From: Nostoc punctiforme PCC 73102
Lineage (GTDB): Bacteria; Cyanobacteriota; Cyanobacteriia; Cyanobacteriales; Nostocaceae
Direction: 5' to 3'
Length of the DNA stretch: 32,000 nucleotides
Assembly: GCF_000020025.1 (NCBI RefSeq)
Contig: NC_010628.1
Span: 8,040,001 to 8,072,000, forward strand
Part shown: in pieces, positions 1,288 to 28,168 of the stretch
Position numbering within the stretch: position 1 is the stretch's first letter
How the letters are laid out: each line of letters begins with the position of its first letter
The notes under the pieces: model-generated
What the model was told of the DNA's origin: nothing
Databases searched by the model: none
What the model saw: the letters and a program-made list of their open reading frames with translations, nothing else
Position numbers and translations under genes: made by a program

Positions 1288-2796
1288 ATGTCAAACTCGC
1301 TGAAAGCATCAACAGCAGGATTAGCAATTGTAGACAAATCACGTCAACGTCTAGGTTGGACAAAAACTAGCACCGCACGCTGGTGGCAAGATGCTCATAC
1401 CTCTAGAGCTACTTTACGCCGATTTTGGCAAGGCGATCGCATCCAGCGAGAAATTTTCATCGCTATCTGTCAAGCTGTTGGTATTGGAAACTGGGAAGCG
1501 ATCGCAGAATTATCCAATGCAGACTTAGAATCTACTGTAGTTATCCCCACACCTTATTTAGATTGCAATGAAGCACCCGATCTCGAAAGCTTCTATGGAC
1601 GAAATCAGGAATTGGCACAATTAGAAGAATGGCTTACCAGCCAAAACTGTAAATTAGTCACTATTAACGGTATTGCTGGTATTGGCAAAACCGCCCTAGC
1701 ACTGGCTTTAGTAGACCGCATTCAGTTAAAATTTGATTGTTTAATTTGGAAGTCTCTGCAAACTTCCCCATCTCTCATTTCCCTACTGAATAGCCTACTA
1801 AACTCCTTTGAGCAAGGCGTTGTTGTGCAGAATATTCAACAAGGTACGGCACAGCTTATACAGCAGTTACAAAAACATCATTGTCTGTTGATATTAGATG
1901 GATTAGAAGCTATTTTCTCGCAGCCAGAAGACCTCAGCTATGGTCAATTTATCCAACAATTAAGTCGAGAACGGCATCAAAGTTGTATTCTGATTAGCAG
2001 CCGCGAACAACCAAATAATATTGAAACTAATACCAAAATATATCACTGTTTAAATCTCAAAGGGTTGCCAAAAACAGAGGCTGTAGAATTATTACAATCA
2101 AGGGGATTTACAGGCAAGGAACTAGGCTTATCAGTATTAATTCAACTTTATCGCGGTAATCCCTTGGTGCTGAAACTGGTAACGCCCTTAATTCAGTCTG
2201 TATTTGGGGGGAATGTTGCTGCTTTTTTGAGTCAGCATACTCTAATTGTAGGCGATCGCTTGCGTGTAATTCTCAAACAGCAATTTGAGCAACTTTCCGG
2301 CTTAGAACAAGACATTCTCTACTGGTTGGCAATTTGGCAAGAACCTGTCTCATTCTCTCGATTGCAAACCCATTTGCTGATATCCGTTGACCCAGCGATG
2401 GTTTTAGAGGGCATTGTAGCCTTAGAAAGGCGATCGCTTTTAGAAAAATGGGTCAGCGATTATGAACTCTCATTTACATTGCAACCCCTGGTCATGAAAG
2501 TGGTGACAGATGAATTGATAGAACATACTGTTCAAGAGATCGATCGAGTTGTGCAGAGTCATGATATTCGTCATTTTCAGATATTGCGAACCCATTGGTT
2601 GCTACGACCCGGTACTGACGATATTGCAGGCGATCGCATTTTAACTCAACTTTGGAAAAAGCTCTGGCATTTGTATGGTGCAACTCTTCCACAAATCTTT
2701 AATCAGATTCTGTTGTTGTTAAAGAGTCAATCGCCTTTAGCAATGGGTTACATCGGGAGTAATGTTGCGATCCTCTCAGGAATAGACTTGTTATGA
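1288..2796 (+). CDS. STAND NTPase: N-terminal HTH-like module plus NB-ARC (AP-ATPase) domain plus winged helix, with no C-terminal repeat sensor
   Basis: Motifs present: Walker A GIAGIGKTALA, Walker B CLLILDGLE, RNBS-B-like ILISSRE, GxP motif RGNPLVLKLV, and a WH-like LEQDILYWLAIWQEPVSFSRL. The N-terminal ~75 aa resemble the module that precedes NB-ARC/WD40 proteins in filamentous cyanobacteria. Confidence 0.85.
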   Translation: MSNSLKASTAGLAIVDKSRQRLGWTKTSTARWWQDAHTSRATLRRFWQGDRIQREIFIAICQAVGIGNWEAIAELSNADLESTVVIPTPYLDCNEAPDLESFYGRNQELAQLEEWLTSQNCKLVTINGIAGIGKTALALALVDRIQLKFDCLIWKSLQTSPSLISLLNSLLNSFEQGVVVQNIQQGTAQLIQQLQKHHCLLILDGLEAIFSQPEDLSYGQFIQQLSRERHQSCILISSREQPNNIETNTKIYHCLNLKGLPKTEAVELLQSRGFTGKELGLSVLIQLYRGNPLVLKLVTPLIQSVFGGNVAAFLSQHTLIVGDRLRVILKQQFEQLSGLEQDILYWLAIWQEPVSFSRLQTHLLISVDPAMVLEGIVALERRSLLEKWVSDYELSFTLQPLVMKVVTDELIEHTVQEIDRVVQSHDIRHFQILRTHWLLRPGTDDIAGDRILTQLWKKLWHLYGATLPQIFNQILLLLKSQSPLAMGYIGSNVAILSGIDLL

Positions 2797-7217: not shown

Positions 7218-9440
7218 TTATTTATCACTCAAAATTGTGTAAGCATCATTAACTAAGTGCATTTTCTCTTGTGCTTGTTTGAGCAGTTGCGGCTGATTTA
7301 CAAACAAATCTGGATGCCATTTTTTTACTAAAGTTCGATAAGCCTGCTTTACCTCAGCCTGAGAAGCATTTGTTTGCAATCCTAAAATGCCGTAGGCGCG
7401 GGTAATTTTATCTTTTTCCGTTTGGGTTTTTGTTTGGCTGGGTGCTTTATTGCTTTGAGTTGAATTTTGCTGTTTGCTAGTTTGAGAACTAGGCGATTGC
7501 ATCTCTGCTTTCATTCGCGCTATTTCTTCATTGAGTTCCCAATCACGAAATTTCGCCTCCACTTCTTCTGGACGCGGAGACGGAGAAGCTTTTGGCGATG
7601 GTGGTGGAGAAACAAATTCTACCCTTGTGCCACTATTTTTAGCAGTCTTTTCCTGTTGTTGCTTAATAACAGGATCTTTCTCAGGGGAAAGTTTAACTCT
7701 TTCTGGCTGTGGTGAATATTTTCTATTGGTATTTGTGTATTTTGGTATTTCTTTATAAGGTTGATGATTTGAGAGGATTTTGGCTTTTTCTAACTCTCGT
7801 AGCAACCGATTAAAAGCATTTTGTAATTGCTGCAAACCTTCACGTTTATTAGTAATTTCTCCTGGTTCTTGGCTGAATTGAAAGCAAATTACTTTTTCCG
7901 CTTGCCGTTCGTATTCAGCCAAAATGGATAACCCTTGGTTGCTAAAACTAGAAAAATAATCTTCAATTGCAGTTATACAAAGTTTAGCAACTTCCTGATG
8001 ATAAGATTCCTTTGCTAATTGCTCGTCTTGTTTTTGGATATTCTTGTTTAATAAATAAGAAATACTTCCGACGACAGCAGCCCCAACTGGACCGCCTAAC
8101 AACCAACCAATACCACCACCAACAGCAATAGAACCAGGTTCACTCAAATCATCATTATTATTTGGCTTTGGGGGTAGTATTACTTGTGGTTCGCTAGGAA
8201 AAGGAATTAATAAATCTTGCGGTCGTTCTTCTTGGAAAAACTCGTAAGCTTGATAAAGCCATTTCACAGCAGCTAATTGTAATTTATTTAGGTCTTTTTT
8301 AAGAGTATTTGTTTGCCAATCTTTAAATTTATTTTCTGCCAATGCAACTGCCGCATCAGGTTGATATTTGGTGAGTAGCTTGGGTAATTCTAGCCAATCG
8401 CGTAATTCTTCGATGCTGGTAGTGAAACCTTTATAAATTAAGTTAGCTGCTTTTTGTTTAATTTCAACTTTACTATTTTGTTTATCATCAAAGGATTTTA
8501 TTTCAAGAGCAATCGGGTCAATTTTAGCTTTTAATGATAGTTGGATTTGAGAAGCGATCGCTTGCACTCTTGGTAAACGCACACTACCACGATTTGGTTG
8601 CAAAATCCCTACAATATTTTGCAAAGCTGTTTCAAAAGCCGCTAACCCGCTACTATTGGCAGCCGCAACATCACCTTTCAATCTAGCTCTTAAAGCAGGT
8701 AAAGCATCAACACGATATAAATTACTAAAACCTGGAGGTAATTCGGCTCGAAAGCTTTCTGCAACAAACAGCAGGCGATTTTGGACTTGTTTTTGCTCGT
8801 CGGGTTCTAGCAAGTTCAGAAAATTAGCAACAAATATAACTGTTTTAATACCGCGATCTAATAGCCAATCTCGCAAATTTTCTCGTTCACCTAAAGTCAT
8901 TAACTTCCGTGCATCTAATAGTTGAATAACTAAATCTGCACCTAAAAGCTGTTCTTTGACTAAATTATCTTGTTCATCTCTATCATTTGTTCCCGGTAAA
9001 TCAAGAAATTCTACTCCTGTTTCTAAGAAGGGATGCGGACAAAAAACTTCCACAGATGCTACATCTTTTCGCATCTGCCTATTACCATCAAGAATTGCAA
9101 ATTGTTGTAGAATTTCTGTGCCACTGCGATAGATTTCTGTACCATCTACCAACATGATACGAGTCCGCACATCAGAGCCATACTTGACAGTAATCGATGC
9201 GCCTGTGGTGGGGATTAAATCAATTGGTAAGGTGCGATTTCCTAGCATGGCATTCAGTAAGGTGGACTTGCCATGATTAAAGGGGCCAAATACCGCAATG
9301 CGAAAACTAGGATTAACTAGATGATTGCAAATGGTAATTATATCTTGATGCAATTGTGATTTGCGTTCTAAATTAAGTAAACCAGATGCAGATTTCAGAG
9401 AATCTGCTAAATCCTTATAACCTGCATACTGTTGTTGCAT
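7218..9440 (-). CDS. Dynamin-like GTPase fused to a C-terminal DnaJ J-domain
   Basis: G1 motif FGPFNHGKSTLLNA and G3 motif LDLPGTND. A Gly-rich hydrophobic paddle-like segment GSIAVGGGIGWLLGGPVGAAVVGSISYLL is present. A P/S/Q-rich linker leads to a J-domain AYGILGL...AYRTLVKKWHPDLF carrying the HPD motif. Confidence 0.9.
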   Translation of the reverse strand: MQQQYAGYKDLADSLKSASGLLNLERKSQLHQDIITICNHLVNPSFRIAVFGPFNHGKSTLLNAMLGNRTLPIDLIPTTGASITVKYGSDVRTRIMLVDGTEIYRSGTEILQQFAILDGNRQMRKDVASVEVFCPHPFLETGVEFLDLPGTNDRDEQDNLVKEQLLGADLVIQLLDARKLMTLGERENLRDWLLDRGIKTVIFVANFLNLLEPDEQKQVQNRLLFVAESFRAELPPGFSNLYRVDALPALRARLKGDVAAANSSGLAAFETALQNIVGILQPNRGSVRLPRVQAIASQIQLSLKAKIDPIALEIKSFDDKQNSKVEIKQKAANLIYKGFTTSIEELRDWLELPKLLTKYQPDAAVALAENKFKDWQTNTLKKDLNKLQLAAVKWLYQAYEFFQEERPQDLLIPFPSEPQVILPPKPNNNDDLSEPGSIAVGGGIGWLLGGPVGAAVVGSISYLLNKNIQKQDEQLAKESYHQEVAKLCITAIEDYFSSFSNQGLSILAEYERQAEKVICFQFSQEPGEITNKREGLQQLQNAFNRLLRELEKAKILSNHQPYKEIPKYTNTNRKYSPQPERVKLSPEKDPVIKQQQEKTAKNSGTRVEFVSPPPSPKASPSPRPEEVEAKFRDWELNEEIARMKAEMQSPSSQTSKQQNSTQSNKAPSQTKTQTEKDKITRAYGILGLQTNASQAEVKQAYRTLVKKWHPDLFVNQPQLLKQAQEKMHLVNDAYTILSDK

Positions 9441-9562
9441 AGTTCTCGTTCTCAGCTTCTAGCTAGTCATACATATCGTTGAGGCTAACATCTCACATTA
9501 TTAGGCATAATTAAACATATAATAAAATTTTAGTTCGTAGTGAGCAATTTATCGTTTATAGG

Positions 9563-9680
9563 CTAATACGGTTCAGTTAAGGTTAAAACTCTTTCTTTAT
9601 CAAGGTCAAATTTTTTAACGAACCGCAGAGGCGCAGAGGGAACAGAGAGAAGAAAAAAATGCTTAACTGAACCGTATTAG
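9563..9680. mobile_element. 118-bp MITE with perfect 19-bp terminal inverted repeats and an 8-bp target-site duplication
   Basis: TIR-L ctaatacggttcagttaag (9563..9581) is the exact reverse complement of TIR-R cttaactgaaccgtattag (9662..9680). The element is flanked by the direct repeat tttatagg at 9555..9562 and 9681..9688. Confidence 0.75.
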
Positions 9681-9748
9681 TTTATAGGCAAGCTTATTAA
9701 GACTAAACTTCTGACACCATTATTTTTTGTTAGGTTGCGCCAAATTTC

Positions 9749-9776
9749 CTTTCTTTCTTTCTTTCTTTCTTTCTTT
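9749..9776. repeat. (CTTT)7 microsatellite
   Basis: Read directly from the sequence. It lies in the spacer between the two dynamin-like genes, about 310 bp upstream of the DLP-J start codon. Confidence 0.9.
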
Positions 9777-9892
9777 GTGTCCTTTGCACCCTTTGCAGTT
9801 CGTTCCTAATTGCCAAAGTCAATTATTTTAACGAACCGCAAAGAACGCGAAGAAAAGAAACATTTAAATGAATCGTATTGACTTATAGTTAT

Positions 9893-9916
9893 GGGAGGCA
9901 TAGTTCAGAGCCTCCC
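9893..9916. terminator. Possible stem-loop downstream of BDLP
   Basis: gggaggc-N10-gcctccc forms a 7-bp GC-rich stem about 50 nt after the BDLP stop codon. No clear U-tract follows, so the call is weak. Confidence 0.3.
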
Positions 9917-9964
9917 TATAAACATTTCTAGCTTCTATCTAAGAATGAGAGTAATAAACTGTTA

Positions 9965-12046
9965 TTAGCTATAGTAAGCTAATAAATTGCTATACGCCGC
10001 CTCGATTTTTTGCAACTGAGCTATTACATCTTCCTGTAAGTTTTTTAAACGATTGAACTCACTCTCACGATTGATTTCACGGGTTTGTTTCTGTTTGACT
10101 AAATTATCTAATTCGGATTTGCGAGATACAATATCATCGTTAATCCGCTTACTCACTTCTCTTTCGTAAGAGTCAAAACACTCTTTTACGGCATTATATA
10201 CAACCTGAGATTGCTCGTGTGCCACTTGTGGTAAGTGTTTAACTAATTCTTTCTTCGCCGTTTTAACTAACTCCCTACGTGCTTGATCTGCTTGCAAAAA
10301 TCCTACTCCCAAGCCTAGCAACGCAAATCCGATTGGACCAAGCAAAATACCCGTCACTGCTGTAATTATCCCGCCAATACCAATTACAGTGAAGTAGTTT
10401 AACAAAATATTTTTCCAATCGAATCCGGCACCGGCTAGTGCGAAACCAGCAAGATTTCCTTTAGACAGTGATAACAATCCCATTGCCCATTTTGCCCAGC
10501 CGGGAGAGTTATCTTCTTCAGCAGTAGTAGTGGTATGTACCTTTACGTCTTTTCCGGTGAGCTTTTCTGTAATTTGGTCTGTGATTTGATTGTAAGATGC
10601 ACCATATTGTGATGCACTGCGAGAAAGTTCTTTAAAAGCTGCGTTAATATCTTTTTCAGCAGTTAATGTCCAAGCCGCAGATTTGTCGGTAATATATTGC
10701 TCAAAGGCTTTTTGCAGTGCGGCGTTAAATGCTTCTCGTTTACCACTACTGAGAAAATCAAACAAATTTAATTCTGGTTGATAGCGTAAGAAGTCGTTTT
10801 CAAAGGTATTACCTAAGTTTAAAACGTAACTGCGGAAAGATTCAGAAATCGTTCTTGCTTGAGTATCTCTTGTATTGATAATTTCTTTTTGGAATTCATC
10901 CCGAATACCTGTGAGTTTGTTAAACTCAGGTTCCACTGAATCAATCCGTTTTTTTAATTCATTTACATCTTGCTCAAGTAATGGTATACGTCTTGCAACT
11001 GCTTCGCGGGTATGATTGCAGGCAAGTCTTGCCAAGGTTCTGACTTGACGAAGTTCTGCGATCGCACGTTCTCTGGTAAGAAAAGTATTAAGCGAATCCA
11101 TAAACTTCGGAAAGCCAGTCCCATCTAAATCAGCTTGCGGGTTCTTCAACCGTCGTCTGAGTGCTTGAATCGACGAAAGCTCAAATACCCGTTCGTCATA
11201 AATATTCTGACCTTCTACAGTACAATATTCTGCTAAATTTGCGTTAAATACTTGCCGCAATCTATTCTCAGATGCTTGTAATTCTTCGACATCATCAGGA
11301 TCGATCAATGATTCTCGCACCTGATCCCAAGCATTAACTAAAAAGAAAACTGTTAATCCCCGACCTTTGATATAATTTTCTAGGTAGCGACGCTCACCCA
11401 AGGTACAAGGTTGAGAAGCTCTCATCACAAACAGAATTGCATGGCAGTTATTTACATAACCCAAAGATAATTCGTTTCGCGCTTCTGTATCATTCAATCC
11501 TGGACTATCGACAATTTCGATTCCCTTTTGTAGTAGCGTTAAGGGATACTCAACTACTGCATAATCAACATCGGGAAAGGCTTGTTTTTTCTCTTGCTCT
11601 AGTTTTTTAGCTTCAGCCGGATCAATAGTATATTTATATTTAAAGTTCTGAAAATCTAGCTGTTGGGGGCTTTTTCCATCATTAAAATGAATGGTAACTT
11701 TCTTTTCTGGTCCATAACGTAAAACTGTTAACACTGCGGTACAAGGGTTAACATCGCTTGGTAATAAGTTTTCACCAATTAAGGCGTTAAGAAAAGTACT
11801 TTTTCCCCGCTTCATATCGCCTAATACTAAAAGGCGAAATACACCTTGTTGGAGGTTTTTACTCGCTATTGTAATATCTTCAATATCTCGCTCTAAACTG
11901 AGTTTTCCTGATGAGGAGTCCCCAGCTAACTCAGCCTTATTAATTGTTTCAGCCAGTTTATTCAAACATACAGACATTTCCGATCGCACTTGAGCAACCC
12001 GCTCTAAATCTTGGATAAATCTGTCAGTTGCTACTTGATTCACCAT
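9965..12046 (-). CDS. Bacterial dynamin-like protein (BDLP)
   Basis: G1 motif LGDMKRGKSTFLNA, G3 motif VDSPGLND, and NAWD in place of the G4 motif. The paddle/membrane-insertion region is GFALAGAGFDWKNILLNYFTVIGIGGIITAVTGILLGPIGFALLGLGVGFL. From memory, the sequence matches the N. punctiforme BDLP used for the 2006 crystal structures. Confidence 0.95.
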   Translation of the reverse strand: MVNQVATDRFIQDLERVAQVRSEMSVCLNKLAETINKAELAGDSSSGKLSLERDIEDITIASKNLQQGVFRLLVLGDMKRGKSTFLNALIGENLLPSDVNPCTAVLTVLRYGPEKKVTIHFNDGKSPQQLDFQNFKYKYTIDPAEAKKLEQEKKQAFPDVDYAVVEYPLTLLQKGIEIVDSPGLNDTEARNELSLGYVNNCHAILFVMRASQPCTLGERRYLENYIKGRGLTVFFLVNAWDQVRESLIDPDDVEELQASENRLRQVFNANLAEYCTVEGQNIYDERVFELSSIQALRRRLKNPQADLDGTGFPKFMDSLNTFLTRERAIAELRQVRTLARLACNHTREAVARRIPLLEQDVNELKKRIDSVEPEFNKLTGIRDEFQKEIINTRDTQARTISESFRSYVLNLGNTFENDFLRYQPELNLFDFLSSGKREAFNAALQKAFEQYITDKSAAWTLTAEKDINAAFKELSRSASQYGASYNQITDQITEKLTGKDVKVHTTTTAEEDNSPGWAKWAMGLLSLSKGNLAGFALAGAGFDWKNILLNYFTVIGIGGIITAVTGILLGPIGFALLGLGVGFLQADQARRELVKTAKKELVKHLPQVAHEQSQVVYNAVKECFDSYEREVSKRINDDIVSRKSELDNLVKQKQTREINRESEFNRLKNLQEDVIAQLQKIEAAYSNLLAYYS

Positions 12047-12062
12047 AATATTTACACCTTAA

Positions 12063-12389
12063 TTAAAGATTGGTTTTTTTAGATTCCAAAAATAATTTGT
12101 AAGACATCCATCCCAGCGCCGCAACAATAATAAACCCAGCCAACACTGAGGCTATTCTCACTGCAACTAGTGTTACTACACCAAGAGCAAACAGCTTTCC
12201 ACCCAGAATCACTTTTTGCATCCAAGGTTTCTGAGAATTTTCTGGCTGATGCTTCACAGTTTGATGAAAAGCTGCATTGGTAGTATGGAGGCTAGTTTCC
12301 ATTTCCCGGAGTCGCAATTCAACTTCTCGTTCTCGTAGTAAACATTCCCGGAGTTCAAGTTCTTTTTGGCGATCGCTTTCAGATGTCAT
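12063..12389 (-). CDS. Small coiled-coil plus two-TM membrane protein, probably co-transcribed with BDLP
   Basis: The N-terminus is a charged heptad-like segment, QKELELRECLLREREVELRLREMETSL. The C-terminus has two hydrophobic helices (LFALGVVTLVAVRIASVLAGFIIVAALGWMSY). Its stop codon is 16 nt upstream of the BDLP start on the same strand. Confidence 0.65.
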   Translation of the reverse strand: MTSESDRQKELELRECLLREREVELRLREMETSLHTTNAAFHQTVKHQPENSQKPWMQKVILGGKLFALGVVTLVAVRIASVLAGFIIVAALGWMSYKLFLESKKTNL

Positions 12390-12563: not shown

Positions 12564-12738
12564 CCAATACAGTTCAGTTAAGCATTTTTTTCTTTTCTCT
12601 GTTTGCTCTGCGTCTCTGTGGTAGCCTGACGCTCCTTCTCTGCGAGACGCTGCGCGAACGTCGCTACCGCTTCGCTAATGCGTCTACGTAAAAAATTGAC
12701 TTTAACAAAGAGTTTGAGCCTTAACCGAACCGTATTGG
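12564..12738. mobile_element. Second copy of the 9563-type MITE in opposite orientation, carrying a nested insert
   Basis: The TIRs ccaatacagttcagttaag and cttaaccgaaccgtattgg match in 17 of 19 positions when one is reverse-complemented. The flanking 8-mers aactaaag and aaccaaag match in 7 of 8 positions. The interior shares the gcatttttttcttttctctg...ctctgcg core with the first copy and also contains an unrelated repeat (ttctctgcgagacgctgcgcg) that recurs at about 12920. Confidence 0.65.
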
Positions 12739-15940: not shown

Positions 15941-16043
15941 TTAATGGGGAATTGGGAATTGGGCATGAATCAATAGTTCTTCCTCTGCCTCCCCTGCCTC
16001 TCCTTTCCTGTGTGTCCTCTGCGCCTCTGTGGTTCGTTAAAAA

Positions 16044-24787: not shown

Positions 24788-27700
24788 TTAATATTCATCT
24801 ATAAATTGAGGATGAACCCAAAGAAATTCACGGCGTTTGTTTTGCACCCGCACTAGACCACCAAAACTAGGATCTTTCTCTTTTAATAAGGTGTGTAATT
24901 CTCGCAAAATTGAGCCTTGAGCGCGGATTGCATCGCCTTCCAAGAAGGAAGCATCGCTCTTGGACTTTCCAGCCAAAGCCATATCACTTCCCTTCAAAGT
25001 AGACTCGATGCTTTTCTGTCCTAAATCAAGTTGTTCTTCAATGGCTTTGTAGGTAGTATCATCCAGTATAAATTTAGTTGCCGAACCTGCCACAGGTAAG
25101 ACTAGGCTCAGGGTTCCGGTCAAAATTCTGAGATAGGGGACTGCTTTGGTGAACCACTCACGCGGTAAGTCTAATTCATAGACTCCCTTTTTCTTGTCGT
25201 TGGGATTTAAAGCTGGAAGTGGTTGACGTGCGTGTTCGCACCAGAGGGTGAGTTGAAACTTAGCACTAATCCATTTGGGGCGATCAAAAAATCCTGGTTC
25301 AATGGGTTTAAAGCTGAACAGGCGCGGGCCATCTTTCGCTTCATCGGTGAGCATCTGCATCAGTTCTGCAAACTGCTGATCGACCTGGCTTAAAATGGTA
25401 CGTTGCTCCTGAGATAATACCTGAAAGCGTGCTTGATCTAGGCGATCGTACATAACCAAATCTTTGCGGATGACGTTTAGCTCGTCTTTCACAATGTATC
25501 GGAACTGCTCAATGCCAATTTCTTGGGATGGGGGTTGAGCAGTTGGCGCGTTATTCAGCAATTGATCGATGTTTTGCCATTCGCCACACCCGGAAATGGG
25601 ACACGGGAACTCATGGCGATTTTTCTTTTTGCTTTCAATTAGTTTTTGTACCTCAAACAGTCCGTTTCCAGGGGCATTCATACCGCAAGTTTCAATGCAG
25701 GGAACCATCACATTACAACGCAATCCTTCCCAGAAATTCTCGACTAGCCATTTAATCTCTTCTGTGAGATATGACAGGAACCTTTCTGGATAAGCTGCCC
25801 GTACCGTAATTTTTACATCAGTGCCAACATATTCCAGCAATGCCCGACCGTTGTAATCATTGTCAAGCATTAAGCCCCGTTGCCAATGGATGCTGTTTTC
25901 GTAATTCGCCCGTCCCAGCGAGTATTTGTGCAACCGAACAATTAACTGGTAAAACAAACCTTCTGCTACTGCAAACTGTCCGCGACTGTCCACAATGCGG
26001 CAGATTTGCACCTGTTGTCTATCTCCCGCTTCTGGTTGCTCTCCCCAATTGGGCAATGGCTCCGGGCGTGTGTCGGGAACGAGTTGAGCAATTAGGCTGG
26101 TATTGCTAGTTTCTGACGGATCGAAAACCACTTTGTAGGATAGATCAAAGCGTTCCATCAGCCGCAGAAAGATTGGATGCAATTTTGGGGGGTAGCCTTC
26201 TTCGCCTGCAAATGGCGGATGGCTCCACAACTGGCTGAGATGTTTAAATTCCACTAAACCGTTGCGTTTGCGTGTTGTTTCATCATCTAGCACGAAGCTG
26301 ATCGCCTTTGCCAGCCAATCGGGTTTGAGAATGACGATATCGCGTAGTGTTGGGTCGTAATGGTAATGGATGAAATGCCCTAATATATGGGAGATGCGAA
26401 GAAACAGTTCTGCTTGCTCCTCATCGATTCCCTGTTCAGCGCAGATGGTAATGACATCATCGTAGGGGAGATAGGCTTTGTCACTTGTCTGTAAAGTTTC
26501 CCGCACCTGTTGCCACTTTGCTGGAACGGAACGCCCCATTTCGGGAAGAGATGCAGCGACACGAGCAATAGTATCTTTTAATTCTGCAAGACCAGCGCAA
26601 TCCGTCGTATCCTGGTTGGGTTTGCTGTCTACATGGAAGAAATCGATTACCGTATCTTTGCCGAATTGATCCAGAATTTCTTGTCTGTCAATGTCCGGTT
26701 GTCGCTGTCCGGGGCCGCCGTGGGTTGCGACGACCAACACCTTTGCATCTGGTTCTCGATTTTTGATCAGCGTAATCCACTCTTTGACAAAGCCCTGCTG
26801 GGGACCTTCCCGTGGCTTCCAGATCACCAGATACACGGCTGGGGCACTGAAAAACAACTGGTGCGTCGGTCGATAAACCCGTTGACCGCCAAAATCCCAA
26901 CCATTGAGTGATATCTCTGTGCCACTGTCGGGATCGGTGACGATTACAGATTTAATTTCAATCCCGTGAGTCGTGGGGCGACCATCCTCCCATTCATCTC
27001 CCCGCAATGCTCCCAACAGACAACTTTTGCCCACCTCACCCTCACCAATTAGGATCAGTTTGGCTTCATTCAGCGTCACCTGTGCTTCTGATCTTGCCCG
27101 CAGGTATTGCAAGACTGCTTCAGTGCCTTGTTCGTAGGCAGCAGCAAGATCAGGATTGAGGGGATTGTGGTCAAGCTGGATATCGTCCAGGTGAGGAAGT
27201 TGCCCTAGCGATGCTGGCAAGTCGGTTAGACAGTTGCTTCCTAGATAGAGTTCTTCCAACTGTGGGAATTCATTCAGCCAGTCAGGCAAAAAATGCAGTT
27301 CACAGTTATTTGCCCAAATCCTCCGAATTTGCTTAATTCGTTGAATGCATGGAGGAAGTTTGCTCAGTGGATTACCACCATCATCAGCTCCTAAAATGAT
27401 AAATTCTAAACTTTGGAGTTTATCCAGTGATTTAGGAAGTTCCGAAATTTGGTTGCCACCAATGCTGAGTATTTCTAATACATGCAGATCACAAATCCAT
27501 GAAGGAATTACTTCTAAATCGTTTGCGTAAATATATAATTCTTTCAACCCTTTCAGTTCTTTTATGACTGATGGAACTTGTCTGAGTAGATTACTTCCAC
27601 AATCAAATATCTCTAAATACAGTAGGCGACTTAATGAATTTGGCAGTTCCGTTAATTCGTTGTGGGAGAGGTCAAATGATTGTAACTGAGTCAGGGATGC

Positions 27701-28168
27701 GATCGCTTCTGGCAGTTCTGTCAATTGGTTGTTAGAGAGGTCAAGCCGTTGCAACCGAGTCAGGGATGCGATCGCTTCTGGCAGTTCTGTCAATTGGTTG
27801 TTGCGGAGGTTAAGCTCTTGCAACTGAGCCAAGGATGCGATCGCTTCTGGCAGTTCTGTCAATTGGTTGTTAGAGAGGTCAAGCCGTTGCAACCGAGCCA
27901 AGGATGCGATCGCTTCTGGCAGTTGGGTCAGTTTATTATTGGAGAGGTCAAGCGTTTGCAACTGGGTCAAGGATGCGATCGCCTCTGGCAGTTGGGTCAC
28001 TTGGTTTCTGGAGAGGTCAAGCTGTTGCAACTGTGTCAGAGATGCGATCGCTTCTGGTATCTCAGTGAGTTCTATCTTGCTGAGATCGAGTTCTATTGCT
28101 CCCTCTTGCCGTGCTTTTTCAATGCGCTGCTCTGCTTTTTGATAAGCTTTATCTCTTGCCATGAGCAA
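24788..28168 (-). CDS. ROCO protein: LRR plus Roc GTPase plus COR, then a Cys cluster and an uncharacterised C-terminal region of ~300 aa
   Basis: About 13 LRRs (LxxLxLxxNxLxxLPxxI). Roc motifs are G1 [11 protein letters not shown]3 WDFGGQ and a VVATHGG G4-like motif. A COR-like region follows ([10 protein letters not shown]..., [10 protein letters not shown]...). Next comes PCIETCG-x28-CPISGCGEW, then a tail with no recognisable motif. Confidence 0.9.
27616..28090. repeat. Near-identical 69-bp tandem units encoding the N-terminal LRRs, each carrying one in-phase HIP1 site
   Basis: GCGATCGC occurs at 27699, 27768, 27837, 27906, 27975 and 28044, exactly 69 bp apart. It encodes the A-I-A of the repeated PEAIASL. 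Confidence 0.95.

Follow-up and report, generated by a model that had tools for sequence, protein, structure and literature searches.

The gene at 7218..9440 of the window, the 32 000-nucleotide stretch of Nostoc punctiforme PCC 73102 DNA that was analysed here, encodes a 740-residue protein (BDLP2-J) in which a dynamin G domain and a helical stalk with a glycine-rich hydrophobic paddle are followed on the same polypeptide by a C-terminal J-domain with an HPD motif. The explanation that we consider best, with a probability of roughly 0.5, is that the BDLP1/BDLP2 pair of heterocyst-forming cyanobacteria has BDLP2-J as its second member and that the tail of this protein is a former J-protein, now fused, which would couple the assembly of these dynamin-like GTPases (DLPs) to DnaK. 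Since 2006, BDLP1 has served as the structural model for bacterial dynamins and for fusion proteins of the mitofusin type. If BDLP2 couples the pair to DnaK, Hsp70 would provide a second energy input beside GTP hydrolysis in the bacterial dynamin cycle, a parallel to endocytosis with its Hsc70/auxilin and to the maintenance of thylakoids by Hsp70/VIPP1. All coordinates below are those of the window and all features lie on its reverse strand.

The gene is a single open reading frame with an ATG start and no internal stop codons, and an exact sequence look-up identified its product as ACC84774.1 / WP_012412710.1 / UniProt B2IZD2 of N. punctiforme PCC 73102, for which the supplement of Jilly et al. 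(2018) gives the locus name Npun_R6512 and the class Tandem A. The DnaJ-like C-terminus of B2IZD2 was pointed out by Liu, Noel & Low (2018; PMC6104087), who predicted a role for it in DnaK binding and/or assembly. The original prediction knew of no characterized fusion of this kind; a search of the literature likewise found no functional study or characterization of a dynamin–J-domain fusion, but the fusion itself was already in print. For BDLP2-J and its orthologues, the literature yielded no experiment on binding to DnaK, on stimulation of its ATPase or on disassembly of polymers, nor anything on the orthologue of Anabaena PCC 7120 (searched under the guessed locus tags all/alr4412–4414). 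Another cyanobacterial DLP clade has an adjoining gene with a DnaK domain (Jilly et al., 2018). As the fusion is known as an observation, the value of the present analysis lies in a sharpened and testable hypothesis and not in discovery; new here are the NxxN form of G4, the acidic helix, the split genes and the finding that all named fused forms belong to the Nostocales.

Dynamin body

The dynamin-type G domain (8823..9299, residues 48–206) is recognized by Pfam Dynamin_N (PF00350) with an E value of 6e-25 and a score of 88.6 bits against a cutoff of 27. It contains the G1 motif GPFNHGKST (9261..9287, residues 52–60) and the G3 motif DLPG (8991..9002, residues 147–150), which are conserved and agree with the GxxxxGKS/T and DxxG patterns of the superfamily. 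The reading of the protein as a full DLP is supported by a G domain above the curated Pfam threshold, both motifs and a paddle at residues 436–466. The G4 position, read from the alignment, is N206-F-L-N209 (8814..8825), an NxxN pattern in place of the canonical (N/T)KxD or the NxxD found in BDLP1 (NAWD) and mitofusin. Asn206, Phe207 and Asn209 are invariant across 25 diverse family members, and of the 52 full-length members in alignment A2 nearly all show the pattern (the most distant member has NGID), which suggests that the G4 aspartate has been replaced by asparagine family-wide.

The helical neck/trunk (about residues 264–556, 7773..8651) is assigned from the predicted fold and is interrupted by the paddle. 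In the AlphaFold2 model the helices at residues 285–402 and 480–552 have pLDDT values above 85 and are predicted to flank the glycine-rich hydrophobic loop GSIAVGGGIGWLLGGPVGAAVVGSISYLL (8043..8135, residues 436–466), a putative membrane-inserting tip whose hydropathy (Kyte–Doolittle 1.54) exceeds that of every other segment of the protein and which is near-invariant across the Nostocales in the orthologue alignment; four relatives have Gly-zipper Pfam matches. The loop and its surroundings (residues 427–478) are modelled with low confidence. The model was built on a 98-sequence alignment and has a mean pLDDT of 76.5 (63 for an earlier model from a shallower set of 30 close orthologues); it comprises the G domain, the long stalk helices, the paddle loop and a J-domain of three helices. 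Foldseek matched it best to BDLP (E = 4.9e-16), IniA, mitofusin (MFN1) and Cj-DLP, with alignments to BDLP and IniA that span 600–745 columns.

A profile comparison (hhalign) of the BDLP2-J and BDLP1 families gave an E value of 1.4e-30 with 31% identity over 245 columns of the G domain. Sequence homology of the stalk to that of BDLP1 was considered and rejected, since the alignment reaches the G domain only and PF21808 gives no match; the stalk was accordingly assigned from the predicted fold. [quoted passage not shown]

BDLP1 neighbour and gene cluster

The gene directly upstream (9965..12046) encodes BDLP1 (Npun_R6513, B2IZD3), the structurally solved partner DLP, as its product matches PDB entry 2J68 over residues 1–693 with 1538.6 bits. 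This neighbour and its place in a conserved tandem had been missed in the original prediction. A BDLP1 orthologue lies directly upstream in 78 of the 78 Nostocales loci with sufficient flanking sequence, and the Tandem A assignment of Npun_R6512 is matched by the adjoining BDLP1-type (Tandem B) gene. The two genes are separated by a 524 bp spacer (9441..9964) that contains dispersed short repeats; a 525 bp noncoding region was noted here by Michie et al. (2014). The spacer ranges from 32 to 2430 bp, with a median of 162 bp, in 79 measurable loci (77 from Nostocales and two from elsewhere). A small membrane protein of 108 residues with a DUF3040 Pfam match, a charged N-terminal helix and a hydrophobic C-terminal hairpin is encoded 16 bp upstream of BDLP1 (12063..12389). 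Its gene is the conserved first gene of the cluster, and its position is kept in most Nostocales loci and in three further loci (L081, L082 and L084). No dnaK gene was found in the window and an Rfam scan gave no matches; a promoter and terminator scan of the cluster yielded fewer promoter-like sites than in shuffled sequences and nothing decisive on cotranscription of the two DLP genes.

BDLP1 (PDB entries 2J68, 2J69 and 2W6D) is thus the closest reference for BDLP2-J: its gene adjoins on the same strand, its G domain is related at the profile level as given above, its structure is the one that the model matches best and it likewise has a glycine-rich hydrophobic paddle between the stalk helices. 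The two proteins differ in that BDLP2-J has a shorter body (about 556 residues versus 693) and a helical region with no detectable sequence similarity to that of BDLP1, its G4 motif diverges and it alone carries the helix–linker–J extension. The putative BDLP1/BDLP2 heterodimer resembles the structurally related tandem DLPs that are thought to form heterotypic complexes (Cj-DLP1/Cj-DLP2, DynA, LeoABC and IniA/IniC), also in having an extra noncanonical domain on one partner. The extra domain of BDLP2-J, its J-domain, sits at the C-terminus and is attached by a long flexible tether, in contrast to the N-terminal assembly domain of Cj-DLP1.

J-domain

The J-domain occupies 7221..7412 (residues 677–740), in close agreement with the expected span of 7218 to about 7420, and includes the sequence KKWHPDLF (residues 706–713) with HPD at 7308..7316 (residues 709–711). 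It is recognized by Pfam DnaJ (PF00226) at residues 682–740 (E = 1.5e-15, 57.4 bits against a cutoff of 27.8), matches many solved J-domains in the PDB and aligns with Tyr6 to Asp59 of E. coli DnaJ. Helices I–III are predicted at residues 671–685, 694–708 and 717–739 with pLDDT values of 75–90. The HPD motif is invariant in all 163 fused proteins, in 30 of 30 aligned orthologues and in 50 of 50 metagenome loci that contain the whole module. The basic positions of helix II equivalent to Arg22 and Lys26 of E. coli DnaJ are also kept (Lys698 is invariant and residue 702 is Arg or Lys), and a dN/dS of 0.18 indicates purifying selection, so that the domain looks competent for Hsp70, as proposed.

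The polypeptide stops as soon as helix III is complete, without a G/F region, so that the competence of the J-domain is an assumption based on these motifs only. Full-length DnaJ models of NCBIfam match residues 682/683–740 only, far under their cutoffs, and Pfam detected neither a DnaJ_C nor a DnaJ_CXXCXGXG domain. With the HPD fold present and the client-binding domains of DnaJ missing, BDLP2-J is classified by sequence as a class C (type III) J-domain protein, with stimulation of an Hsp70 ATPase as the predicted activity.

Linkers and conserved acidic helix

The P/S/Q-rich disordered linker described in the original prediction is present, and both of its quoted strings were found; it is not uniformly disordered or unconserved, however, as it contains a conserved acidic amphipathic helix, EEVEAKFRDWELNEEIARMKAEM (7497..7574, residues 623–648), which is a new observation. 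Linker 1 (7575..7772, residues 557–622; alignments A1 and A3) is P/S/K-rich, variable in length and found in fused forms only, with pLDDT values below 50 for residues 580–622. Linker 2 (7413..7496, residues 649–676) is a low-complexity segment rich in Gln, Asn, Ser and Lys, and residues 647–671 are again below 50. The helix is predicted at residues 624–648 in both structure models, and Phe631, Trp634, Glu635, Glu639, Ile640, Ala641, Met643, Lys644 and Met647 are invariant in alignment A1. Constraint is strong on the helix (dN/dS 0.14) and on the J-domain (0.18) compared with linkers 1 (0.41) and 2 (0.37). The helix is strongly acidic and bears no resemblance to a DnaK substrate site.

Split and fused forms

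In non-heterocystous cyanobacteria the helix–linker–J module is encoded by a separate gene of 117–150 codons that immediately follows the gene of an unfused dynamin orthologue. In Waterburya (locus L084) and another metagenome (L088), a DnaJ-domain gene for 117–125 residues lies 87 bp downstream of an unfused 562-residue orthologue on the same strand. Its product aligns end to end with residues 625–740 of BDLP2-J (40% identity, E = 1e-28), such that the acidic helix is the counterpart of the N-terminus of the standalone protein and linker 1 falls outside the alignment. Seven further split loci were found, one with an ATGA stop/start overlap and one with a gap of 4 nt. The separate J gene and unfused dynamin on the one hand and the fusion on the other form an apparent Rosetta-stone pair, which is new here, and the existence of relatives with a separate neighbouring gene for the module suggests that the dynamin and J parts work together. 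A separate J-domain gene had been named beforehand as evidence against a fusion; other cyanobacteria naturally have one, and there it strengthens the functional link instead of refuting it. Of the nine loci with unfused orthologues that were looked up directly, seven lack a neighbouring J gene, so the DLP can evidently work without the module.

Every fused form with a taxonomic name that was recovered belongs to the Nostocales, and some divergent metagenomic fused forms carry no taxon. The best 120 non-Nostocales relatives are all unfused, the nearest being Tandem A proteins of 546–572 residues. These data, drawn from match lists dominated by Nostocales, support, without proving, a restriction of the fusion to the Nostocales. 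The split and fused gene pairs offer a clean experimental handle, as the 118-residue module, an HPD-to-QPD mutant and the helix can each be tested separately.

Comparison with J-protein systems

One mechanistic resemblance is to auxilin/GAK, class C J-proteins whose C-terminal J-domain follows a disordered region containing a motif for the assembly that is dismantled. With auxilin/GAK, Hsc70 acts as a disassembly motor that uncoats clathrin after dynamin scission. The resemblance would be one of mechanism only and not of family membership: homology is confined to the J-domain, Pfam and NCBIfam detected no PTEN-like or clathrin-binding region in BDLP2-J, and the client in the present case would be the dynamin-like polymer itself. 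We know of no auxilin that is fused to a dynamin. A second parallel is found in chloroplasts, where a J-protein with Hsp70 assembles and disassembles VIPP1 oligomers (PMC12798727). In this system (CDJ2–HSP70B–CGE1 / cpHsc70-1; PMC12798727) the Hsp70 is a DnaK type of cyanobacterial descent and the client remodels the thylakoid membrane, although that client is ESCRT-III-like and not a dynamin, and the J-protein is separate and unrelated outside its J-domain. ZipN/Ftn2/ARC6, the J-like division protein of cyanobacteria and plastids to which the original prediction referred, is likewise a membrane-associated morphogenetic protein with a DnaJ-type domain, but that domain is N-terminal, the protein acts on FtsZ and there is no GTPase domain.

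Proposed mechanism and alternatives

The module most likely brings DnaK to the BDLP1/BDLP2 assembly, which would agree with the original prediction that DnaK is delivered to a dynamin polymer. In the mechanism that we propose, the last ∼118 residues, which run from a short acidic targeting helix through a low-complexity spacer to the J-domain, would once have been a standalone class C (type III) J-protein that was later fused to the dynamin. On membranes, the G domains and the paddle would mediate assembly of the dynamin body with BDLP1, while the J-domain, on a flexible tether of ∼120 residues, would capture ATP-bound DnaK and trigger ATP hydrolysis through HPD. DnaK would next clamp onto a segment of the DLP assembly, and in the outcome that we favour Hsp70 would take the DLP polymer apart or reset it, following the logic of auxilin–Hsc70 on clathrin and of CDJ2–HSP70B / cpHsc70-1 on VIPP1. 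The free J-protein may have docked onto the DLP complex by way of the conserved helix, whose retention in the fused protein could reflect a persisting contact with BDLP1 or with the stalk, or a gating of the J-domain. The analysis shows the domain architecture, how it is conserved, the selection on it and the split and fused arrangements of the genes; we infer DnaK binding, the identity of the client and the disassembly outcome for BDLP2-J. A broader and more tentative proposal, which we hold to be possible but somewhat improbable, is an ancestral cyanobacterial dynamin–Hsp70 module in which a mini J-protein encoded with the BDLP1/BDLP2 cluster, and fused in heterocyst-formers, would make DnaK the motor for the disassembly or recycling of a dynamin polymer, a prokaryotic counterpart of auxilin–Hsc70. 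If true, this could account for the lack of assembly-stimulated GTPase activity in BDLP1 on its own.

The evidence fits a DLP that is the client and a DLP that is a platform alike. In the latter case, which we regard as unlikely although it is the strongest of the alternatives, the DLP pair would mark sites on the thylakoid, the plasma membrane or the septum, and BDLP2-J would position DnaK there to act on other proteins (for example in membrane-protein insertion or repair) in the manner of DjlA or Sec63. All J-domain features count equally for this possibility, the paddle would place the protein at a membrane and the long flexible tether suits reaching clients. DjlA, a proteobacterial type III J-protein, also ends a membrane-associated protein with a J-domain, and the J region of its NCBIfam model matches the C-terminal 100 residues of BDLP2-J (residues 639–738, E = 1.2e-12, under the model cutoff). 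This match covers the J region only, so BDLP2-J is no DjlA member, and DjlA itself is anchored by an N-terminal transmembrane segment and lacks a GTPase. Although sequence data do not separate a platform from a client, the cluster encodes no client candidates, and the free J-protein consists of a J-domain and a 22-residue helix only and is translationally coupled to the DLP gene, which speaks for a specific link between this protein and the DLP complex as such.

Less probable still is that the J-like domain and/or the helix mainly bind BDLP1 and nucleate the heterotypic pair independently of Hsp70, like the N-terminal assembly domain of Cj-DLP1. Such a role was proposed explicitly for B2IZD2 (Liu, Noel & Low, 2018; PMC6104087); the active tetramer of Cj-DLP1/2 needs an accessory domain, and ZipN reportedly needs its DnaJ domain to localize to the Z ring (PMC7766704). 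The conserved helix of BDLP2-J carries no assigned role and could serve in this way, but a part for it in assembly is compatible with coupling to DnaK and not opposed to it. Moreover, HPD and the basic face of helix II are strictly invariant in at least 200 fused and split sequences, a signature of Hsp70 coupling, whereas scaffolding J-like domains such as those of ARC6 and Pam16 have lost HPD.

Integrity of the fused reading frame

The possibility that the J-domain is truly a separate gene, joined to the dynamin in the window by a frameshift, can be dismissed as extremely improbable, even though the module is a separate gene in other cyanobacteria and one metagenomic fused copy (L128) is broken into 397 and 348 residues, because the frame is kept across hundreds of sequences from independent assemblies. 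The best 120 of 120 homologue clusters, from independent genomes, have one ORF of 716–783 codons, and a second search again gave 120 of 120; PF00350 and PF00226 were found together in every one of these homologues in each search, as they are in the 740-residue product of the window, so that both domains lie on one polypeptide as originally predicted. The fused ORF is also present in 80 genome loci and 38 metagenome contigs. That the fusion is no artefact follows as well from the retention of HPD in all full-length fused homologues recovered and from the purifying selection on the J-domain, and the 66-residue in-frame linker that bridges the two parts (residues 557–622) shows coding-type constraint.

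Gene cluster

The minus strand of the window carries three compactly arranged genes, encoding a DUF3040 protein (108 residues; 12063..12389; ACC84776.1/B2IZD4; family assigned by Pfam), BDLP1 (693 residues; 9965..12046; ACC84775.1/B2IZD3) and BDLP2-J (740 residues; 7218..9440; ACC84774.1/B2IZD2), with a gap of 16 bp between the first two and a spacer of 524 bp (9441..9964) between the BDLP1 and BDLP2-J genes. By exact-sequence look-up, the three products all belong to N. punctiforme PCC 73102, and the 740-residue open reading frame is therefore Npun_R6512; Michie et al. (2014) named it BDLP2, and Jilly et al. (2018) refer to it as 'Tandem A'. The sequence of PDB entry 2J68 (N. punctiforme BDLP1) matches the 693-residue frame over all 693 residues (1538.6 bits). 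Two more large signalling NTPases, both unrelated to BDLP2-J, are present in the window: a ROCO-type protein (LRR-Roc-COR-A-COR-B; 1126 residues; 24788..28168, minus strand) and an NB-ARC/STAND NTPase (502 residues; 1288..2796, plus strand).

Domain architecture of BDLP2-J

All of the features ascribed to BDLP2-J in the original prediction are present in the sequence. A dynamin domain and a J-domain lie on one polypeptide (Pfam Dynamin_N, residues 48–206, E = 6e-25; DnaJ, residues 682–740, E = 1.5e-15), both matches being well above the curated cut-offs. The G1 (GPFNHGKST) and G3 (DLPG) motifs, a glycine-rich hydrophobic stretch (residues 436–466), the J-domain motif KKWHPDLF and the two low-complexity linker strings quoted previously can all be read. 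A sequence search of the PDB matched the N-terminal part to BDLP1, Cj-DLP1/2, mitofusins and IniA and the C-terminal 60 residues to many solved J-domains. An AlphaFold2 model (98 homologues as input; pLDDT 76.5) is confident for the G domain and the stalk helices (residues 285–402 and 480–552), with low confidence in the paddle loop and pLDDT values below 50 in both linkers. It places a helix at residues 624–648 and a three-helix J-domain at residues 671–739, and its best structural matches are BDLP (E = 4.9e-16), IniA, mitofusin-1 and Cj-DLP. The J-domain has neither helix IV nor a G/F region, and we infer its activity from motifs alone.

Conservation of the fusion

Sequence comparisons indicate that the dynamin–J fusion is real and old. 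The best 120 protein clusters matching BDLP2-J are all 683–783 residues long and each contains both Pfam domains, as do the best 120 clusters matching a 60%-identical Calothrix-type relative. Named sources of fused proteins are Nostoc, Anabaena, Nodularia, Cylindrospermum, Tolypothrix, Calothrix, Scytonema, Fischerella, Chlorogloeopsis, Cyanomargarita and Brunnivagina; a taxonomy look-up of Cyanomargarita, Chlorogloeopsis and Brunnivagina assigned these three genera to Nostocales. The HPD motif lies inside the last 75 residues in 163/163 full-length fused proteins collected. dN/dS was estimated by region for 73 coding sequences from species-representative genomes, each compared with the window gene, and was 0.07 for the G domain, 0.19 for the stalk, 0.41 for linker 1 (residues 557–622), 0.14 for the helix at 623–648, 0.37 for linker 2 (residues 649–676) and 0.18 for the J-domain. 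Selection on the helix and on the J-domain is therefore as strong as on the stalk of the dynamin.

All fused sequences with a taxonomic name come from Nostocales. This describes the named sequences sampled and does not prove a restriction to that order: the supplement of Jilly et al. (2018) lists DnaJ-like dynamins that adjoin DLPs in Crocosphaera watsonii and Oscillatoria acuminata. BDLP1/BDLP2-J pairs also occur in a contig labelled 'uncultured Acetobacteraceae bacterium' (CAZZZY010000312.1, locus L011; 90–95% identical to Nostoc) and in two metagenome-assembled genomes labelled 'Chroococcales cyanobacterium' (L052 and L053; BDLP2-J 85–88%, BDLP1 94–96% identity), all probably mis-binned or mislabelled Nostoc sequence. 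One metagenomic fused copy (L128, 2099..4339) is broken into open frames of 397 and 348 residues, which could reflect pseudogene formation, an error in sequencing or a secondary split.

The observation of a fusion was borne out. The fusion had been recorded before: Liu et al. (2018) mention the DnaJ-like domain of this protein, Jilly et al. (2018) list it in their supplement, and some database names read 'J domain-containing protein'. The literature searched yielded no experimental test of the roles proposed for BDLP2-J, nor any report of the split-gene relatives, conserved helix, selection analysis or G4 peculiarity described here.

Unfused relatives and split J genes

The next relatives of BDLP2-J (50% clustering; 53–40% identical) are 540–600 residues long, end at the equivalent of residue ∼556 and contain no J-domain. 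With a profile of these unfused proteins, at least 120 further clusters were recovered, spread over Pleurocapsales, Oscillatoriales and Leptolyngbya-type taxa; those listed are all 546–572 residues long, and PF00226 was found in 0/120 of them. Of nine unfused-gene loci examined, two (L084 and L088) have a short same-strand gene for a DnaJ-domain protein 87 bp downstream. The 117-residue product at L084, from Waterburya sp. (Pleurocapsales by taxonomy look-up), aligns from its second to its last residue with residues 625–740 of BDLP2-J (40% identity, E = 1e-28), spanning all three parts of the C-terminal module: an N-terminal helix (DNIEDKFRSLEIEAELQKLRQEL in L084, EEVEAKFRDWELNEEIARMKAEM in the window), a Q/N/S-rich spacer and an HPD J-domain, with both proteins ending directly after helix III.

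A profile of the module matched over its whole length at 50 metagenomic loci. It was fused to a Tandem A dynamin in one frame of 688–800 residues at 38; at seven, a small J gene follows immediately after the gene of an unfused dynamin, in one case with an ATGA stop/start overlap (L126) and in another with a 4-nt gap (L116); three were standalone, with no dynamin within 3–4 kb upstream, and two lay on contigs too short for assignment. By sequence, the unfused dynamin with its small J gene and the fused BDLP2-J form a classical Rosetta-stone pair, which indicates that a translationally coupled mini J-protein became joined to the dynamin C-terminus through a new P/S/K-rich connector (residues 557–622).

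Proposed function of the module

The standalone J-protein has no parts other than a helix of 22 residues, a spacer and the J-domain, which leaves the helix alone for target finding. Because its gene directly follows that of the dynamin, the probable target is the DLP complex. Since the helix is still under selection after fusion, it must have a further role besides tethering the J-domain to BDLP2, and it might contact BDLP1, contact the stalk or gate the J-domain. A less probable alternative is that the dynamin only brings DnaK to membranes, where other proteins would be the clients, in the manner of DjlA.

The basic face of J-domain helix II is kept, with K698 and R/K702 equivalent to R22 and K26 of E. 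coli DnaJ. An invariant HPD and a basic helix II are, as judged from sequence, what coupling to Hsp70 requires; in ARC6 and Pam16, whose J-like domains are scaffolds, the HPD has been lost. The J-domain may additionally be an assembly domain for BDLP1, as proposed by Liu et al. (2018). Because the HPD is invariant, helix II is basic, the J gene adjoins the dynamin gene and the helix is selected, we favour a role in which the module would recruit DnaK to BDLP1/BDLP2 assemblies. The original reading, that the J-domain delivers DnaK to a dynamin polymer, is reasonable and now has better comparative support. Disassembly or resetting of the polymer would be the preferred outcome, by analogy with auxilin–Hsc70 and with the action of HSP70B–CDJ2 and cpHsc70-1 on VIPP1 (PMC12798727); BDLP2-J would resemble the auxilin family in its way of working but is not a member.

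According to the text of Jilly et al. (2018), a DnaK-domain gene is encoded downstream in a 'chaperone clade' of cyanobacterial DLPs, the members of which all belong to Nostocales genera (supplement) and are the same lineages that have J-fused BDLP2. The DnaK-like product of that gene is a candidate for the cognate Hsp70. With the fusion, a part for Hsp70 in a bacterial dynamin cycle can be tested sharply and cheaply, and in the BDLP system that has been studied best.

G4 motif

The G4 motif of BDLP2-J is N-F-L-N (residues 206–209; 8814..8825, minus strand), the equivalent position in BDLP1 and mitofusins being N-x-W-D. Asn206, Phe207 and Asn209 are invariant among 25 diverse Tandem A proteins, and NxxN is kept in nearly all of 52 full-length members checked, only the most distant having NGID. 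When Asp is replaced by Asn at the equivalent site of Ras-like GTPases, nucleotide specificity moves towards xanthine nucleotides. By this precedent, the BDLP2-J G domain may have a weak affinity for GTP, or may serve BDLP1 as a regulatory partner.

Tandem arrangement and accessory genes

In 78/78 Nostocales loci with enough upstream flank, the gene immediately upstream, in the same orientation, encodes a BDLP1 orthologue (82–98% identical), and most of these loci have a DUF3040 homologue ahead of BDLP1. The spacer between BDLP1 and BDLP2 ranges from 32 to 2430 bp (median 162) in 79 measurable loci (77 from Nostocales and two from other orders), with the 524 bp of the window at the long end; a spacer as short as 56 bp was noted in other species. 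The window spacer contains a 25-nt inverted-repeat pair (9557–9581 and 9662–9686), a 30-nt direct repeat (9601–9630 and 9814–9843) and a short (GAAA)n run. Both repeats have more copies in the window, at 12564–12738 and 16025..16040, which suggests small dispersed insertions of a MITE-like kind.

In non-Nostocales clusters, the stretch separating the BDLP1-type gene from the Tandem A gene repeatedly encodes a hydrophobic protein of ∼168–208 residues (L084, 9437..9943; L088, 4579..5121; L093, 1137..1763; L113, 2975..3517), apparently with several membrane spans and with a C-terminal YLYQFEYLVR motif; no homologue is present in the window. The DUF3040 protein (12063..12389, minus strand) has a charged N-terminal helix and a hydrophobic C-terminal hairpin, and might serve the DLP pair as a receptor or anchor in the membrane. 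The Waterburya cluster also begins with a homologue (30% identity), as do those of a Pseudanabaenales metagenome-assembled genome and one further locus (L081).
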